A DNA stretch of 43,725 nucleotides from IMG/VR virus record IMGVR_UViG_3300035494_000048; one strand, written 5' to 3'. The position numbers and the translations under genes are program-made. This DNA is from a virus. The notes below the pieces were generated by a model. That model did not search any database. It worked only from the letters and a program-made list of their open reading frames with translations, and was not told the DNA's origin. Numbering within the stretch: position 1 is the stretch's first letter; each line of letters begins with the position of its first letter. Below are positions 20,019 through 33,903 of the stretch, piece by piece.

Positions 20019-20531
20019 ATGACCCTCTCTGAAATACGGGAGCGAGCCATAGCGCCCGCTCTCGCGCTGCTGCCTGCGCGGATGTCGAGCCGAGAGGCTG
20101 AGATCATGCTGCTGGCTATCGGGCTGCAGGAAAGTCGCTTTGTCCACCGTCGCCAGATGGGCAACGGCCCGGCCCGGTCGTTCTGGCAGGGTGAGCTCGG
20201 CGGCGGGATGGTGGCCGGAGTTCGCACCCATGAGACGACCGAGGCCCATGCCGCCGCTCTGTACCGAGCTCGAGGCGTTGCGCCTGACAACCGATCGATC
20301 TGGAATGCCATTGAGCATGACGACGTGCTGGCCGCTGGGCTGGCTCGCCTTCTGCTCTGGAGCGATCCGGGCCGGCTGCCGGGCGAGGATGACGTCGAAG
20401 GCGCCTGGCGGTTGTACCTGAAGACGTGGCGCCCGGGCGCATACGAACGCGGCACTGCCGAGCAGCGCGCAGAGCTCCGCGCCAAGTGGGGCCGGAACTA
20501 CGCCGCTGCCGTGCGCGAGGTGATGCGATGA
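20019..20531 (+). CDS. Endolysin, lytic transglycosylase / lysozyme-like
   Basis: 170 aa with an SLT-like catalytic region LLAIGLQESRF. Directly followed by the spanin genes. No signal or SAR sequence evident. Confidence 0.7.
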   Translation: MTLSEIRERAIAPALALLPARMSSREAEIMLLAIGLQESRFVHRRQMGNGPARSFWQGELGGGMVAGVRTHETTEAHAAALYRARGVAPDNRSIWNAIEHDDVLAAGLARLLLWSDPGRLPGEDDVEGAWRLYLKTWRPGAYERGTAEQRAELRAKWGRNYAAAVREVMR

Positions 20532-21043
20532 CCGCCTGGCTGAAGTTCGTGCCCAGCTGGGCCTGGTGGGTGCTGGCTCTGGCTGTCGTGGCTGGCGGGC
20601 AGCAGATCCGGGTGCTATCGGCTCAGTCTGACGCCGCTCAGGCGAGAACCGATCTTGCCTCCTACCGCACCGAAGTCAGCGAGCGCGACCGCCGTGCCGC
20701 GCTGTTCGTCATTCAAGAAAACCAGCGGCGCCAGGCCGCGACGGAGAAATCAGATGCAGAGGCACAGGAACAACTGGCTGCAGCGCGTACTGACGCTGAG
20801 CGCGCTGGCAGTGCTCTTGAGCGGCTGCAGCAGCGCCTCGCAGCAGCTGAGCAGCGCAGTCGTGACGCCGGCAATGCCATCACTGCCCAGCTCAGCCAGG
20901 CAGCCGAAGGCGCCGCCAGAGTGCGAGCCGACGTGCTCGGCAGGGTTGGAGAGGCTGCTCAACTCTATGCTCGAGTCGCCGACGAGCGGGGAGTAGCGGG
21001 TGCCGCATGTGAGCGGGCCTATGATGCGGTGAAGGGGGATTAG
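20528..21043 (+). CDS. Rz: Inner-membrane spanin (Rz-like)
   Basis: ATG 20528 overlaps the endolysin stop (ATGA). N-terminal TM (WAWWVLALAVVAGG) followed by a coiled coil. Contains an embedded lipoprotein ORF. Confidence 0.8.
   Translation: MTAWLKFVPSWAWWVLALAVVAGGQQIRVLSAQSDAAQARTDLASYRTEVSERDRRAALFVIQENQRRQAATEKSDAEAQEQLAAARTDAERAGSALERLQQRLAAAEQRSRDAGNAITAQLSQAAEGAARVRADVLGRVGEAAQLYARVADERGVAGAACERAYDAVKGD
20754..20996 (+). CDS. Rz1: Outer-membrane lipoprotein spanin (Rz1-like), embedded in Rz in the +1 frame
   Basis: MQRHRNNWLQRVLTLSALAVLLSGC: signal peptide with lipobox LSGC. Pro-rich mature part. Entirely inside Rz. Confidence 0.8.
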   Translation: MQRHRNNWLQRVLTLSALAVLLSGCSSASQQLSSAVVTPAMPSLPSSARQPKAPPECEPTCSAGLERLLNSMLESPTSGE

Positions 21044-21610: not shown

Positions 21611-22792
21611 CTACGCTTGGGGCACTTTTGGGGCAAACTGTAATTTGCGCATCTCGGCCCAATCGCCTTCGCCGTCGATCCAGCGGGCATACCGAGACAG
21701 CAAAATCTGTATCGAATGGCCGAGCTGCTTGGCGATGAATGCCGGTGTCATTCCGGCCATCAGGCACATGGTTGCGTAGGTGTGGCGCGCATTGTACGGG
21801 GGCCGGTAGCGAATACCCAGCGCCTTTAGTGTCGGGCGCCACTGGTGATGCAGGTCACTCGTCTGCTGGATGAACTGAGAGCTCTTGCTCGGCGGAAAGC
21901 AGAACGGAAAATCTGTCAGCCTACCGGAGCCGGCCGCGCGCCGCTCGGCGTACTGCTTGGCGAACAGAAGGGCATGCACTGCCCGATCATTCAGCAGCAC
22001 AAACCTATCCTTCTTGGTCTTCGTCCGCTCGACGACCTTCTTCTTTGCTACGGACCTGCAGACGTGGACCGTACGCCTCTTCAAATCGACCTCTTCCCAG
22101 CGAAGGGCGGCGATCTCTCCTAACCGCATGCCGGTATAGAAGGCGAACTCAAAGAACGCCGCGTATATCTGGCTTGGCCAATGCTCCGTTTCGTAAAGCC
22201 TCGCAATGATCCTGTCCGCCTCATCCTGCGTAAACGGGTCGACCTTCGCCTCCGTCCGCGTCGGGATGTCCAGCGCCTGGATCGGGTTCTCTGCAATCAG
22301 CCTGTCCGAAACCGCTGACTCAAGAATGGTGCTCAGCTTGTTCATGGCGTTGGCCTTCACGCCGTCCGAGGTCCATGGGATTTGAACGACGAGCTCGCGC
22401 ATGAAGGCGGTCGTCAGGTTGGGAAGGGGAGTTGTGGCCAGGTACGGCATCCACCAGACATTGAGCACTGACTTGTAGTTGTCGCGCGTGCCTTCCGAGA
22501 TCGATCGGCTGTCGAGCCAGACCTGGGCGTACTGTCCGAACCCGCGCGAAACGCTCGATACGGCGTTCGGCGAGCCCGGGAAGAGCTCGGCATACTTACG
22601 CTCGTCGAAGATGCCGTGCTTGATCTGCTGGACTACTTGATCGCGTAGACGGGATGCAGCGGCAATGCCCGCTTGCGTCGGGGGGAGGGCGAGGGTTTCT
22701 GAGCATCGCTTTCCGTTCCAGCTAAATCGGATGCGGATCGTATCGTTGCGTAGCTCAACTCCGGTGGGCAGTGCCATAGGCTTTCTTGCCAT
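21611..22792 (-). CDS. int: Tyrosine integrase (lambda-Int type with N-terminal arm-binding domain)
   Basis: 393 aa. C-terminal catalytic pattern ...ARHTYATMCLMAG...LGHS...LSRYARW (R, HxxR, Y). N-terminus LPTGVELRNDTIRIRFSWNGKR is arm-binding type. Confidence 0.9.
   Translation of the reverse strand: MARKPMALPTGVELRNDTIRIRFSWNGKRCSETLALPPTQAGIAAASRLRDQVVQQIKHGIFDERKYAELFPGSPNAVSSVSRGFGQYAQVWLDSRSISEGTRDNYKSVLNVWWMPYLATTPLPNLTTAFMRELVVQIPWTSDGVKANAMNKLSTILESAVSDRLIAENPIQALDIPTRTEAKVDPFTQDEADRIIARLYETEHWPSQIYAAFFEFAFYTGMRLGEIAALRWEEVDLKRRTVHVCRSVAKKKVVERTKTKKDRFVLLNDRAVHALLFAKQYAERRAAGSGRLTDFPFCFPPSKSSQFIQQTSDLHHQWRPTLKALGIRYRPPYNARHTYATMCLMAGMTPAFIAKQLGHSIQILLSRYARWIDGEGDWAEMRKLQFAPKVPQA
21616..21637 (+). 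repeat. Two tandem arm-type repeats (CTTGGGGCAC / TTTTGGGGCAAA) inside the last codons of int
   Basis: Read directly; same orientation as the 21433-21466 cluster. Confidence 0.7.
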
Positions 22793-30998: not shown

Positions 30999-31367
30999 TT
31001 AAGCCGCCAACTGCGCCTCTTCCATCCGCTGAGCCCGCGCTACTGTCTGAGAGCGGGGAGCTTCCGGCCGGCGAATCGGGCGAGCCTGCGGGTTGTGCTC
31101 GGCGCCTACCAATAACGCCAGCACCAGGGGTGCGATGATTCCCCGGCGCATGGCTTCAAGGCAGAGGCCGCGTGTTGTGCGCTGGTTGCCCAGCTTGAAA
31201 CGGGCGTCGTCGAGCTGCTGCTTGACGGTGTAGTGGCTGCAGTCCATCAGCCGTGCGATTTCCTTTGCCGTCTTGTCTGTTGCTGCCCAGAGAACGGCCA
31301 GCAGCTGGCGCGGTGCCAGGCCTTCGCCGAGGCGTCCTTGCCAACCATCAATTTGGATCGTGTCCAT
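30999..31367 (-). CDS. LuxR/GerE-type HTH protein (no ligand or receiver domain); first gene of the leftward early operon
   Basis: 122 aa from ATG 31367 (AGGAG RBS). LAPRQLLAVLWAATDKTAKEIARLMDCSHYTVKQQLDDARFKLG is a GerE-type HTH. Hydrophobic stretch GIIAPLVLALLVGA follows. Confidence 0.7.
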   Translation of the reverse strand: MDTIQIDGWQGRLGEGLAPRQLLAVLWAATDKTAKEIARLMDCSHYTVKQQLDDARFKLGNQRTTRGLCLEAMRRGIIAPLVLALLVGAEHNPQARPIRRPEAPRSQTVARAQRMEEAQLAA

Positions 31368-31619
31368 CGTGGTTCTCCTTGCTTTGGGTCTTGCTGCTTT
31401 CCCAATGCCCGCTGTCTCCAACGAGCATCAGTGAAAGTCACTCCCCTTACACGCCCTGGGGATCTAGGCGCTTTGCATTGCGTGCTGGGTCATTCGCACG
31501 GTTCTGGCTATGCCATCGTCAGCCGTCGAGGTTCTTCCTCGCGTGGGCAGCCTTTCGGGGCTGTCTGATCGCCGGTCGCCAGCAGAGGCAATGCGGTCTG
31601 TTTGGTTGTTGCGCTTCAG

Positions 31620-31660
31620 TTTTAAAGAGCGTTTCGGGTCACCCCGAGGCCTCTCGGCCT
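31620..31660 (-). promoter_or_regulatory. nutL-like element: two tetraloop hairpins followed by boxA-like CGCTCTTTAAAA
   Basis: On the - strand RNA: aggcc-gaga-ggccu, cggg-guga-cccg, aaa, CGCUCUUUAAAAC. The boxA consensus CGCTCTT(T)A is matched exactly. Confidence 0.5.
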
Positions 31661-31691
31661 GTCGTCGCTGTGTTTCGCTTCGATGGGTGAG

Positions 31692-31720
31692 AATTTAGAG
31701 AACTAAACTAAAAGCGTCAA
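31692..31720 (-). promoter_or_regulatory. PL-like early promoter with overlapping operator
   Basis: - strand TTGACG, 17 nt, TAAATT. A perfect palindrome TTTAGAGAACTAAA (31694-31707) has the same TTTAG-N4-CTAAA form as the cI/cro operators. Confidence 0.65.
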
Positions 31721-31751
31721 CAAGTTTTTAAAGAAAACTTAACTGCGGGCT

Positions 31752-31779
31752 GAAAAATAAGCCCGCTCAAGGGCGGGCT
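31752..31779 (-). terminator. Rho-independent terminator after the 83-aa moron gene
   Basis: - strand agcccgc-ccttga-gcgggct followed by TATTTTT, 7 nt after the stop at 31786. Confidence 0.75.
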
Positions 31780-31785
31780 AGGGTG

Positions 31786-32037
31786 TCAGTGCTCCGATCC
31801 GGTCCAGATGACGTGCACGCTTCCGTCCGGTCTTCGTCGCATGGTCACGTTGTCGGCCTGCTCGATCTCTTCAAGAAGACGCTCCCAGTCTTCAGGTCGA
31901 TCATCAGGCCCCGGCCTGAGGTTGGCCTGGCGTTCGCGCTGCGCGGTAGGCGCCGTGATGGTGAGGTTTACGCGCCGCACTAGGCGGCTGTAGCTGGAGA
32001 GCTGACGCTGATTGGTGACGACTGCTGGTCCTGGCAT
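31786..32037 (-). CDS. Hypothetical 83-aa protein; terminator-insulated moron in the immunity region
   Basis: ATG 32037 preceded by a perfect AAGGAGG RBS. Intrinsic terminators on both sides. Upstream region is AT-richer. Confidence 0.6.
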   Translation of the reverse strand: MPGPAVVTNQRQLSSYSRLVRRVNLTITAPTAQRERQANLRPGPDDRPEDWERLLEEIEQADNVTMRRRPDGSVHVIWTGSEH

Positions 32038-32168
32038 GTGAATCCTCCTTACTGCTGGATATCCACACAGTAATTGTGAGGGTTTCACTGGGCAAGAGGA
32101 AACATGGTGGCCGTTTGCCACATGTAAAGAAGTGGCTCAGACCTAAGTAGGAGAGGGTGCCATGGATA

Positions 32169-32194
32169 CAAAAAGCCCCGCGTGGTGCGGGGCT
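32169..32194 (-). terminator. Rho-independent terminator ending the cI operon
   Basis: - strand gccccgc-accac-gcggggc followed by TTTTTGT, 6 nt after the stop at 32200. Confidence 0.8.
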
Positions 32195-32199
32195 TTGAG

Positions 32200-32493
32200 T
32201 CACTTTGGAAGGTTTGCCACAAGCGGAGCCAGATACTGCTGAACCACCCACCAGCCAGCAGCGAACACTGCTATTCCGGCGACAAGCGTATAAATGGCCA
32301 TCTGCCCTTTGGTGAGCATGTTTAGCTCAATGTTCTCCAAGCGGGTCTCGACCTTGCCTAAGGCGACCTTCATGTCTGTCATGTCTCTTTCAAGGTCTCT
32401 GATTCGGCCGTCCATCCCATCGCCTCCAGGTGGATTTGTACCTCCAGTATCACTGGATCGCCTTATCGGCACAACCGTCTCACTCCTGGCCAT
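32200..32493 (-). CDS. Coiled-coil protein with C-terminal transmembrane helix (XhlA-like architecture)
   Basis: 97 aa. RIRDLERDMTDMKVALGKVETRLENIELNML, then TM AIYTLVAGIAVFAAGWWVV. GGGAGG RBS. Overlaps the upstream gene by 14 nt. Confidence 0.6.
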   Translation of the reverse strand: MARSETVVPIRRSSDTGGTNPPGGDGMDGRIRDLERDMTDMKVALGKVETRLENIELNMLTKGQMAIYTLVAGIAVFAAGWWVVQQYLAPLVANLPK

Positions 32494-32782
32494 GCGCCGC
32501 CTCCCAGTCCTTGATGTCCCTTGCGACCCGCGTGGCGTTGAGCTGCCTTATGTTGCCGCAGAACGAACACGTCAGCGGCAGCGTGATCATGAAAGCCTCT
32601 GTGACGTAAGGGAGGTTCGAGCTGAGAAAAACTACGTTGCCTTTCCATGCGTCAAGCAGCCAGTCGCTATGACCACATGCCTCGCATGGCCGCTCACAGT
32701 CCTTGCGCTGGAGGTATTGGTTGATCTGGTTGACCGTCAATGACTTGATGTAGTTCGGGTCAACCTTAGTAGGCTCACTCAT
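32480..32782 (-). CDS. Zinc-ribbon-like hypothetical protein (100 aa) co-transcribed with cI
   Basis: ATG lies 1 nt after the cI TGA. Cys pairs PCEACG ... CSFCG. Confidence 0.6.
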   Translation of the reverse strand: MSEPTKVDPNYIKSLTVNQINQYLQRKDCERPCEACGHSDWLLDAWKGNVVFLSSNLPYVTEAFMITLPLTCSFCGNIRQLNATRVARDIKDWEAAHGQE

Positions 32783-32783
32783 A

Positions 32784-33461
32784 TCAAACCCTAGCCCTGC
32801 TCGGCGGCACGATGGCGCCGACCGAATGAATGTGCTCTATCTGCTCCGTGGGGATGTTGCGGATCGTGTGGCCGTTCACTGAAAGCAGGCTGACTTCCGC
32901 CTCGTTGGAGTACAGCAGGCGCTTTAACATGCTCTCGCCTTCAGTAGTGCGAACCATGACGTACTCGCCTGGGAAGTAGTCCCGATCCGGCTCGATGACT
33001 GCGACCCAGCCGCTATGGATCGCCGGCTCCATCGAGTCGCCCTTTAGGCGTAGCGCATAGGCGCTGGCGTCGCGCGAGTAGGCATCCACGGTGCCGTCAG
33101 CTTCTTCCAGGGCATACCAGTAGCCATCGGCGCCCATCTGCGCAGTGCCTACGATAGGGATAGCGCGGTACGGGCTGACGATCGGCGGGCCTTGCTCGAC
33201 GTTGCTGGCGTCATCCATGTCCAGCCACGGCTTGTCCAGGCTCAGGCCTTCGGGAACGGGTGCGCCCTCACCTGTAGCGAGCCAGCGAGCAGAGCAGCGG
33301 AGCGCCTTGGCGAGAGCCATCAGGTTCTCTCCGCTCAGTTTGTTCACGCCGGTCTTCCAGAAAGTGATCGTCGTCTTCGAGACGCCGATCCGCTTGGCCA
33401 GCTCGCTCTGAGTCAAGCCGGTTTCCTTCAGGCGCTGGGTCAATCGGTCTTTGAATTCCAT
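32784..33461 (-). CDS. cI: CI-type repressor (XRE HTH plus S24 LexA-like autopeptidase domain)
   Basis: 225 aa. N-terminal HTH LTQSELAKRIGVSKTTITFWKTG. C-terminal GDSMEP ... MLKRL (Ser/Lys dyad). Divergent from cro. Confidence 0.9.
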   Translation of the reverse strand: MEFKDRLTQRLKETGLTQSELAKRIGVSKTTITFWKTGVNKLSGENLMALAKALRCSARWLATGEGAPVPEGLSLDKPWLDMDDASNVEQGPPIVSPYRAIPIVGTAQMGADGYWYALEEADGTVDAYSRDASAYALRLKGDSMEPAIHSGWVAVIEPDRDYFPGEYVMVRTTEGESMLKRLLYSNEAEVSLLSVNGHTIRNIPTEQIEHIHSVGAIVPPSRARV

Positions 33462-33462
33462 G

Positions 33463-33526
33463 TTTAGGATTCTAAAGCCTTATTGAGTTTAGATTCCTTG
33501 CCTTTGCGTGTTAAGATGCCTAAACT
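33463..33526. promoter_or_regulatory. Tripartite operator with divergent PRM-like and PR-like promoters
   Basis: 14-bp sites TTTAGGATTCTAAA (33463-76), TTTAGATTCCTTGC (33488-501) and TTAAGATGCCTAAA (33511-24), spaced 25 and 23 bp start to start. PR is TTGCCT(33498-503)-17-TAAACT(33521-26). - strand TAGAAT (33474-69) lies 7 nt before the cI ATG. Confidence 0.65.
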
Positions 33527-33552
33527 GACCGCACAAATAGCGGAGAGCTGAA

Positions 33553-33756
33553 ATGACATTCGACGAAGCATTGGCGTTCTTTGGCTCGGGTCGAGCCATT
33601 GGAGATGCGCTTGGTGTCAGCAGCGGCCGAGTTTCCCAGTGCCGTGCAGCAGGAGGTTTTTCCTACCCGATGCAGTGCGTTCTTGAGAAAGAGTCTCGCC
33701 GGAAGTTGATCGCCAAGCGTGAAGACGAGCCGGGTAGTTCAGCGGCGGTTGCATAA
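33553..33756 (+). CDS. cro: Cro-like small HTH regulator
   Basis: 67 aa, divergent from cI, with a GGAGAG RBS. AIGDALGVSSGRVSQCRAAG is HTH-like. Confidence 0.7.
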   Translation: MTFDEALAFFGSGRAIGDALGVSSGRVSQCRAAGGFSYPMQCVLEKESRRKLIAKREDEPGSSAAVA

Positions 33757-33871
33757 GAGACATCCCTGTCAGTGGTTTCCATGGTTCCCATCTTAGGGCC
33801 GGATATCAGGGCAGGTAATAAAAGCGGGGAGGGTGTGGATTCATCCAGTACCTGAATCGCAGGCAACAAAA

Positions 33872-33903
33872 AGCCCGGTGGATCAGACCGGGCTCTTCAA
33901 CAG
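33872..33903 (+). promoter_or_regulatory. nutR-like element: 8-bp hairpin followed by boxA-like GCTCTTCAACAG
   Basis: agcccggt-ggatcag-accgggct, then CTCTTCAACAG (10/12 to rrn boxA GCTCTTTAACAA). Same hairpin-then-boxA order as the leftward leader. On the - strand the hairpin is followed by TTTTT. Confidence 0.4.

Follow-up and report, generated by a model that had tools for sequence, protein, structure and literature searches.

Three small genes lie downstream of the cI-like repressor gene in the viral DNA IMGVR_UViG_3300035494_000048, and the question raised by this locus is whether they form one system and what they might do for a prophage. The whole stretch of 43,725 nt was analysed and is referred to here as the window. 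The genes encode proteins of 100, 97 and 83 amino acids (aa) and are named ORF100, ORF97 and ORF83 (ORF, open reading frame). An initial annotation, made from the sequence, had regarded them as one three-gene cassette in the position of the lambda rex genes. Our analysis led to a different arrangement: the region consists of two independently regulated accessory units, the cI-ORF100-ORF97 operon with its terminator and ORF83, which has its own signals and a LexA-type SOS box. An anti-phage defence or exclusion role is plausible for ORF100/ORF97. ORF100 and ORF97 make up an accessory module that is widespread but uncharacterised; its features are unusual, and as a new system it still awaits demonstration.

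The architecture of the first unit was examined from the sequence. ORF100 starts 1 nt past the cI stop (TGA-T-ATG) and is overlapped by ORF97 over 14 nt; these spacings, the positions of the three ORFs and the AAGGAGG ribosome-binding site (RBS) of ORF83 were all present as initially annotated. The intrinsic terminator behind ORF97, an equivalent of lambda tImm, was read as a hairpin followed by a T-run and was also found by an independent scan. On the basis of gene spacing, overlap and the conserved terminator, cI-ORF100-ORF97 is predicted to be a single lysogenic transcript, and by analogy with lambda cI-rexAB it would be expressed in lysogens. A 14-bp palindrome, TTTAGNNNNCTAAA, matched the window four times, compared with 0.21 matches expected by chance, and three of the four matches fell inside the immunity region. 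These copies are likely cI/Cro operators that mark OR and OL. Since such palindromes are present at both ends, cI, ORF100, ORF97 and ORF83 would all lie between the OR-like and the OL-like operators. The lambda rexA and rexB genes are likewise located between the two operator regions.

The conservation of this operon was then measured in 49 loci, which a search with only the ORF97 family had retrieved from viral contigs and public genomes and which were annotated with purpose-built hidden Markov models (HMMs). A non-redundant subset comprised 38 loci. An S24 cI-like repressor gene was found upstream on the same strand in 47 of the 49 loci, and a terminator-like hairpin within 70 nt past the ORF97-type stop in 36 of the 38 non-redundant ones, versus 6% of random windows. 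The small upstream gene nearly always overlapped or abutted the long ORF97 reading frame. With OR-like and OL-like operators bracketing the genes and the gene order recurring in nearly all 49 loci, the positional analogy with lambda PRM-cI-rexA-rexB-tImm, drawn in the initial annotation, was borne out.

Directly upstream of the ORF97-type gene, the commonest gene was one of the ORF100 zinc-ribbon family (phrog_4293). Its place could also be taken by a Cys-free helical protein of about 75-95 aa, by one of two more unrelated small proteins, by a second ORF97 paralogue or by no gene at all, and the partners fall into at least four mutually unrelated classes. Distant ORF100 homologues (28-35% identity) were located between cI and an ORF97-type gene in three of three cases. 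The gp27/gp26 proteins of Pseudomonas phage PS-1 are a very diverged version of the ORF100/ORF97 pair (hhalign probability 93%) with the same architecture; the branch formed by PS-1 and locus L010 keeps the pair without the C-terminal tail WWVVQQYLAPL of ORF97. When the window was compared with loci such as L015, L022, L035 and L040, the ORF97 core showed 79-89% identity and the zinc-ribbon partner 18-26%. In 136 pairwise comparisons of loci, partner identity, ORF97 core identity and repressor identity were uncorrelated, with Spearman coefficients against repressor identity of 0.06 for the partner and 0.10 for ORF97. Moreover, the same ORF100 was found alongside different cI alleles, one of 225 aa and one of 232 aa. 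The membrane component is therefore constant, the cytoplasmic partner is hypervariable or shuffled, and both reassort freely with the immunity type. A locus of this kind was noticed in phage phi1 (L003, 2950-5128), where about 2.2 kb past the repressor and a BRCT-domain gene are unannotated in the published record; this stretch codes for a 107-126-aa partner-class gene and an ORF97 homologue.

We were particularly interested in the nature of the variable partner. Four cysteines of ORF100 (C33, C36, C72 and C75) were invariant among 37 aligned homologues, 34 of which matched phrog_4293. The AlphaFold model, with a mean predicted local distance difference test (pLDDT) of 91, contained a helix, a zinc-ribbon beta sheet and a C-terminal helix, and hydropathy gave no transmembrane (TM) segment. 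The zinc ribbon that had been suspected from the letters of ORF100 agrees with both the cysteines and the model. A word-indexed search with ORF100 returned a single cluster, and a tblastn search against 50,697 phage records found nothing; the family became visible only in an exhaustive HMMER search, which gave 39 distant relatives. Because families of relatives exist for all three proteins (39 for ORF100, 59 clusters for ORF97, and DUF1654 for ORF83), the three are real genes and not chance ORFs. ORF100 had zero matches in PADLOC and NCBIfam. In a Foldseek search of the ORF100 model against PDB no match was obtained at E < 0.1, and only generic zinc ribbons (TFIIS/Rpb9, MqsA-N, NrdR) were returned; profiles of the ORF100 and ORF97 families searched against PDB sequences gave generic zinc-ribbon and coiled-coil noise only. 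Against BFVD, the ORF100 model had one good match, an unnamed 87-aa protein, which, judged by protein length alone, is probably PS-1 gp27. Profile and structure searches of the kind proposed as a check gave an assignment for ORF83 (DUF1654, see below) and no significant PDB fold for ORF100.

The tight association with the repressor could mean that the pair belongs to the lysis-lysogeny circuitry, with a membrane-anchored factor and a zinc ribbon tuning repressor level, repressor cleavage or the timing of induction. The near-obligate linkage to an S24 repressor on the same transcript agrees with such a role. So does the zinc ribbon, as ribbons of the TFIIS, NrdR and MqsA-N types often bind nucleic acid or regulators, although the fold matches of ORF100 to them are weak and non-significant. 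However, neither partner identity nor ORF97 identity followed that of the repressor, and the occurrence of the same ORF100 with different cI alleles is unexpected for immunity-specific regulators. Neither ORF100 nor ORF97 matched a DNA-binding domain. We regard a circuitry role as distinctly unlikely.

The membrane protein was analysed in the same way. ORF97 consists of a Gly/Pro-rich N-terminal tail, a coiled coil (residues 27-62), a C-terminal TM helix (residues 66-84) and the conserved tail WWVVQQYLAPL. The a/d positions of the heptad register were hydrophobic in 10 of 11 cases, and the hydrophobic helix had a Kyte-Doolittle value of 1.94, in agreement with the coiled coil and C-terminal TM helix of the initial annotation. 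Relatives of ORF97 were found in 59 clusters, one of which, from P. aeruginosa, occurs on 105 contigs. Conservation in the family peaked at the end of the TM helix and in the short external tail, where W82 and Q85-Q86-Y87-L88-A89-P90 were invariant, and the conserved part of the protein was the C-terminal 71 aa, from Met27 (32415). The GC content of both ORF100 and ORF97 was below that of the neighbouring genes. ORF97 had no PADLOC match, and NCBIfam gave nothing above threshold.

An XhlA-like architecture had also been proposed for ORF97. The architecture stood, but family membership did not: ORF97 as an XhlA family member failed the Pfam test, with 15.3 bits against a gathering cut-off of 34.7 bits. 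At E < 0.1, 8 of 22 ORF97 family members matched XhlA (best E 7e-4), and one database entry carries the name 'Hemolysin XhlA'. The possibility that ORF97 is the holin of this phage was rejected, since the lysis cassette is located elsewhere (about 20.0-21.0 kb). In that cassette (20019-21043), the endolysin-like gene (phrog_3108) precedes an i-spanin-like ORF with an N-terminal TM segment and a coiled coil, and an o-spanin-like lipoprotein ORF (20655-20996) is embedded in another frame.

The invariant TM end and external tail of ORF97 suggest an unchanging target at the membrane, of host or phage origin. ORF97-type proteins could act alone in superinfection exclusion at the envelope, blocking DNA entry or a receptor or pilus machine, with the partner as an accessory or passenger. 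A precedent for this explanation is provided by known exclusion proteins of Pseudomonas prophages, which target envelope machines, as Zip does with PilZ (bioRxiv 10.1101/2024.03.05.583538), and a partner gene that can be replaced or missing would also be in line with it. On the other hand, the near-constant presence of an overlapping or abutting small upstream gene argues for a functional pair, and the PS-1/L010 branch keeps this pair without the WWVVQQYLAPL tail. Exclusion by ORF97 alone is considered unlikely.

The start of the conserved part of ORF97 coincides with an internal in-frame ATG, with a GGAGG 7 nt ahead of it. Among the 38 non-redundant homologues, the aligned codon was ATG in 21, TTG in 10, GTG in 6 and another codon in 1; the exception was a locus with a long N-terminal extension. 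All Leu codons at this position were TTG and all Val codons GTG, compared with a background in ORF97 loci of 11.6% TTG among Leu codons and 33.6% GTG among Val codons. Two closely related homologues differed solely in having GTG or ATG. A conserved Pro-Pro-Gly-Gly-Asp-Gly motif is encoded by the 24 nt ahead of the internal start. The variation of these 24 nt showed three-base periodicity, with an entropy of 0.43 bits at the first, 0.58 bits at the second and 1.46 bits at the third codon position; because the sample was chosen by the PPG motif, the first two positions of three codons were fixed in advance, and it is the near-maximal entropy of their third positions that is informative. The upstream ATG at 32493 overlaps the partner stop and has its own GGGAGG. 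In locus L051, a stop 8 codons upstream leaves the short form only. These data suggest that ORF97 is probably made in both a 97-aa and a 71-aa form from two start codons. Dual starts serve as a timing device in holin/antiholin systems, and a timing device would also suit the circuitry role considered above.

Two loci with unusual ORF97 forms were recorded. L051 (3168-3722) contains two tandem ORF97 paralogues, the second being the one with the stop 8 codons ahead of its start. L020 (4001-4438) encodes a form of 145 aa that is extended at its N-terminus by a long helical segment; a separate partner gene is absent, and the codon at the usual internal start is CTA, a non-start codon. The L020 form may be a partner-effector fusion.

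The second unit was treated separately. ORF83 matched PF07867 at 4.7e-19 (68.3 bits, cut-off 27) over profile positions 1-67 of 70, and phrog_2707 at 9.4e-23, which clearly places it as a full-length member of the DUF1654 family by profile comparison. All three proteins had been described as unrecognised; this held insofar as PADLOC and NCBIfam gave no known defence family and did not hold for ORF83. The hexamers of a putative promoter were read by eye from the sequence, and a LexA-type SOS box, CTGTGTGGATATCCAG, overlaps the putative -10. An SOS box was found in 28 of 29 distinct DUF1654 upstream regions versus 4.7% of random 180-nt windows, and the only region without one belongs to a fragment of a split gene. 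This amounts to a regulatory assignment for the phage DUF1654 genes. In most divergent loci, the box lies 31-38 nt ahead of the DUF1654 ATG, and near-consensus boxes such as TACTGTATATACATACAGTA and TACTGTATATTCTTACAGTA occur there. A divergent pair of DUF1654 genes (L002) has CTGTACGAATATACAG in common, with the box 76 nt upstream for one gene. Price et al. (bioRxiv 10.1101/072470) reported that P. fluorescens mutants in DUF1654 genes are sensitive to cisplatin and that LexA is predicted to control close homologues.

The surroundings of ORF83 had been likened to those of a moron, and the evidence for this was recovered: its own terminator (extent 31745-31779), a putative promoter, the inverted repeat GTGGC-AAACG-GCCAC and the AT-richer upstream region, where GC dips to about 50%, were all found. 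ORF83 thus has terminators on both sides, an inferred promoter, the GC dip and, moreover, a shared upstream block. The 130 nt upstream of it are nearly invariant in the window, PS-1 and loci L005 and L006, though the flanking genes differ. The inverted repeat is kept in PS-1, L005 and L006 except for one loop base and is unrelated to the operator palindrome. DUF1654 genes often, but not always, adjoin an ORF97-type gene, in either orientation. In L005 (4816-5183) and L006 (2528-2895), an insertion of about 200 nt with a second terminator splits the ORF97-type gene from the DUF1654 block, indicating that the DUF1654 unit and its 130-nt regulatory block move as a separate module. Because the conserved SOS box lies over the putative -10, ORF83 would be repressed in the lysogen and so would form a unit separate from ORF100/ORF97. 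ORF83 is probably an SOS-inducible moron, off under host LexA in the quiet lysogen and on after DNA damage. The idea that ORF83 is expressed constitutively in lysogens is, given the conserved box, probably wrong, and the single three-gene cassette of the initial annotation gave way to two transcription units.

A different function under the same control is conceivable. ORF83 could be a LexA-controlled antirepressor, or a modulator of RecA or the SOS response, that aids prophage induction rather than benefiting the host; Tum of phage 186, the Gifsy antirepressors and DinI would be the models. LexA-controlled antirepressors are established in other temperate phages, and ORF83 is a small acidic protein with an SOS box, placed in the immunity region next to OL/PL. 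However, the cI protein has an S24 self-cleavage domain, so an antirepressor would not be needed, and chromosomal, non-phage DUF1654 genes with a cisplatin phenotype point to a general role in DNA damage. Structure was uninformative here: the single-sequence model had a pLDDT of 63, and neither the fold search with this model nor a profile search against PDB gave an informative match (zero fold matches). An induction-aiding role for ORF83 seems unlikely.

Considering both units, we suggest that ORF100/ORF97 form a Rex-like two-component exclusion or abortive-infection module. This suggestion rests on where the genes lie within the immunity region, on the combination of a constant effector and a variable partner, on their lower GC content and on precedents in Pseudomonas prophages. 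The latter include a RexAB-type system downstream of the repressor in P. putida prophage P1 (PMC12894663) and the repressor-linked exclusion genes of Pseudomonas phage Fc02 (PMC9936078). ORF97 would be a tail-anchored inner-membrane protein, with its coiled coil in the cytoplasm and its short, highly conserved tail in the periplasm. The fast-evolving cytoplasmic partner would sense an invading phage or set the specificity towards it, and would then release or activate the constant membrane protein, presumably through a physical ORF100-ORF97 interaction. ORF97 would oligomerise via its coiled coil, so that the membrane is compromised or an envelope step blocked, and ORF83 would be switched on by DNA damage alongside prophage induction. 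The comparative data, a constant membrane protein with a hypervariable partner, are compatible with the sensor/effector idea. The explanation as a whole, covering both units, is offered tentatively, as a real possibility short of a probable one.

Several results weigh against this Rex-like explanation. Neither RexA/RexB nor any PADLOC model (E up to 10) showed homology to ORF100, ORF97 or ORF83, ORF97 has one TM helix and RexB four, and the generic zinc ribbons returned by the ORF100 fold search were all at E > 0.1 in PDB. Partner and ORF97 do not co-evolve, which is unusual for a tightly interacting pair, and a separate partner gene is absent in some loci (L020). The support for the dual start of ORF97 consists of codon statistics only. 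For ORF83, the SOS box of the window is a weaker variant (CTGT-N8-CCAG, with a G-rich centre) than those of most relatives, and the window showed no enrichment of the bare pattern CTGT-N9-CAG, so that the case for an SOS box depends on positional conservation and not on the count of that pattern.

Two small overlapping genes, the soluble one leading, also recall a toxin-antitoxin-like addiction module, in which ORF97 would be a membrane toxin neutralised by the zinc ribbon and the prophage would be stabilised. A single-TM coiled-coil protein with sub-threshold XhlA likeness and an MqsA-N-like zinc ribbon among the weak fold matches would suit such a module. However, no toxin-antitoxin family was matched in Pfam, NCBIfam or PADLOC. 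Toxin and antitoxin normally co-evolve, and the lack of co-evolution between partner and ORF97 argues against it as well; partnerless loci exist, and the module lies inside the repressor operon without an autoregulated promoter of its own. An addiction module is thus very unlikely.

If the pair does serve defence or exclusion, it would represent a new and very compact effector type among the accessory systems of prophage immunity regions, namely a single-pass, tail-anchored coiled-coil effector with swappable partners. As the pair is common in Pseudomonas prophages, it could influence host ranges in phage therapy. A broader proposal can be made, which we consider doubtful: phrog_6136 would be the constant effector of a widespread, previously unrecognised two-component prophage defence in Pseudomonas and neighbouring genera, made as isoforms by a holin/antiholin-like dual start, gated by small, fast-evolving and interchangeable sensors in the cytoplasm (zinc ribbons or one of three or more further folds) and co-transcribed with the repressor, with a LexA-controlled DUF1654 gene habitually adjacent. 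Cultured models for this family are phage PS-1, the P. aeruginosa phages YMC11/07/P54 and YMC/01/01/P52, and phage phi1.

The features of the region are collected in Table 1. The 43.7 kb of the window represent a temperate lambdoid phage or prophage with a Pseudomonas-like host. Besides the integrase, its genes include RecT, an exonuclease, a cI/cro switch, and O-like and DnaB-like replication genes. Among isolated phages, Pseudomonas phage PS-1 is the nearest, with about 86% identity over only 34% of the queried 2.4 kb (31500-33900). The cI-like repressor matched the Pfam domains S24 (8.4e-16), HTH_3 (4.2e-14) and Phage_CI_repr (3.2e-9), and phrog_4 (1.7e-41).

Table 1. Coordinates of genes and predicted signals in and around the immunity region of the window
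Feature	Position	Strand	Remarks
Integrase	21611-22792		
PL-like promoter	31692-31720	-	TTGACG-17-TAAATT, sigma-70-like; directly downstream of the ORF83 terminator
OL-like operator TTTAGAGAACTAAA	31694-31707	-	overlaps the PL-like promoter; left boundary of the immunity region
ORF83 terminator	31745-31779	-	two overlapping hairpin readings, 31779-31760 and 31766-31745
ORF83, DUF1654 protein	31786-32037	-	RBS AAGGAGG 32044-32050, 6 nt before ATG
LexA-type SOS box CTGTGTGGATATCCAG	32055-32070	-	overlaps the putative ORF83 -10
Putative ORF83 promoter	32055-32095	-	-35 TTGCCC 32090-32095, 17-nt spacer, -10 TACTGT 32067-32072
Inverted repeat GTGGC-AAACG-GCCAC	32107-32121	-	inside the 130-nt block, about 50 nt upstream of the putative ORF83 promoter
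Intrinsic terminator (tImm equivalent)	32169-32194	-	end of the cI-ORF100-ORF97 operon; GCCCCGC-ACCAC-GCGGGGC and T-run
ORF97, predicted short form, 71 aa	32200-32415	-	internal ATG 32413-32415, GGAGG 32423-32427
ORF97, long form, 97 aa	32200-32493	-	phrog_6136 family (1.3e-31)
ORF100, soluble four-cysteine zinc ribbon	32480-32782	-	phrog_4293 family; variable partner gene
cI-like repressor, HTH_3 and Peptidase_S24	32784-33461	-	first gene of the lysogenic operon; Pfam and PHROG
OR-like region, two palindrome copies TTTAGNNNNCTAAA	33463-33476 and 33511-33524		between cI and the cro-like gene
Promoter-like site within the OR-like region	33514-33486		
cro-like gene	33553-33756	+	

Some observations were made on the PL-like transcript. 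Within its leader (31422-31692), a non-coding stretch of 124 nt (31513-31636) showed 85.8% identity to unannotated DNA of phiPSA1, psageB2 and PSA-2T, which are otherwise unrelated to the window phage. This stretch had an RNA fold z-score of -2.2 and no Rfam match; it may be an antitermination element of the nut/put type or encode a small RNA. Scans of the whole window for Rfam families and tRNAs gave no matches. The first gene of the PL-like operon (30999-31421, minus strand) encodes a GerE/LuxR-type helix-turn-helix protein (phrog_3282 'sigma factor', 2e-41) and not an N-like antiterminator; a gene of this type also follows DUF1654 in PS-1 and several other loci.

The two units were finally compared with known systems. 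XhlA (PF10779) of Bacillus PBSX-like phages resembles ORF97 in its small size, its N-terminal coiled coil and its C-terminal TM helix. XhlA belongs to a lysis cassette, whereas ORF97 is in a repressor operon and has a Gram-negative host. The lambda holin/antiholin S105/S107 is likewise a phage membrane protein of small size; its gene has two in-frame starts with a Shine-Dalgarno sequence each, an arrangement also predicted for ORF97. The starts of S105/S107 are 2-3 codons apart, compared with 26 in ORF97, which lies outside the lysis cassette and whose isoforms are predicted. ORF83 shares with its close homologues, the Pseudomonas DUF1654 SOS genes, a predicted LexA box (Price et al.), and differs from other DUF1654 genes in being a prophage copy between the immunity terminator and OL/PL with a weaker box. 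By architecture only, the pair also resembles Sbash gp30/31 and Butters gp30/31 of mycobacteriophage and Gordonia prophages, which combine a cytoplasmic with a membrane protein, are expressed from the prophage near the immunity genes and give heterotypic defence (PMC6426596, PMC7542560); their hosts and sequences are unrelated to those of ORF100/ORF97.

The closest likeness in layout is to lambda RexA/RexB and to PP_5643/PP_5644 of P. putida prophage P1 (PMC12894663), each of which comprises two genes downstream of a cI-type repressor. In RexAB, as here, one soluble and one membrane protein are encoded inside the immunity region with a terminator at the end, and from this layout lysogenic expression of the pair would be expected. 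By position, the pair lies downstream of cI, between OR and OL and ahead of a terminator. By homology, it has neither a RexA-like sensor nor a four-TM RexB-like effector, and no sequence or fold similarity to RexAB was found: RexA is a DNA-binding protein of about 280 aa and ORF100 a 100-aa zinc ribbon, and RexB has four TM helices compared with the single C-terminal one plus coiled coil of ORF97. In prophage P1 of strain KT2440, the validated RexAB-type pair is located downstream of cI, past PP_3897 and PP_3898, and deletion of either of these two genes gave no phenotype against the two phage groups tested, 7B and 9A (PMC12894663). We retrieved the P1 locus via a published primer sequence and rejected PP_3897/PP_3898 as ORF100/ORF97 homologues, because the PP_3897-like gene is HIRAN-like and nothing there matched the ORF100 and ORF97 HMMs; the data on these two genes are thus neither for nor against the ORF100/ORF97 family. 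A relative of this locus (L072, 6763-7993) has ORFs of 139 aa (HIRAN-like) and 145 aa (TerB-like) directly past the cI-like gene, which, with the domains called by eye from motifs, appear to be further variable cargo at the same position. The KT2440 P1 study says nothing on the ORF100/ORF97 family itself and supports the general principle of repressor-linked defence.

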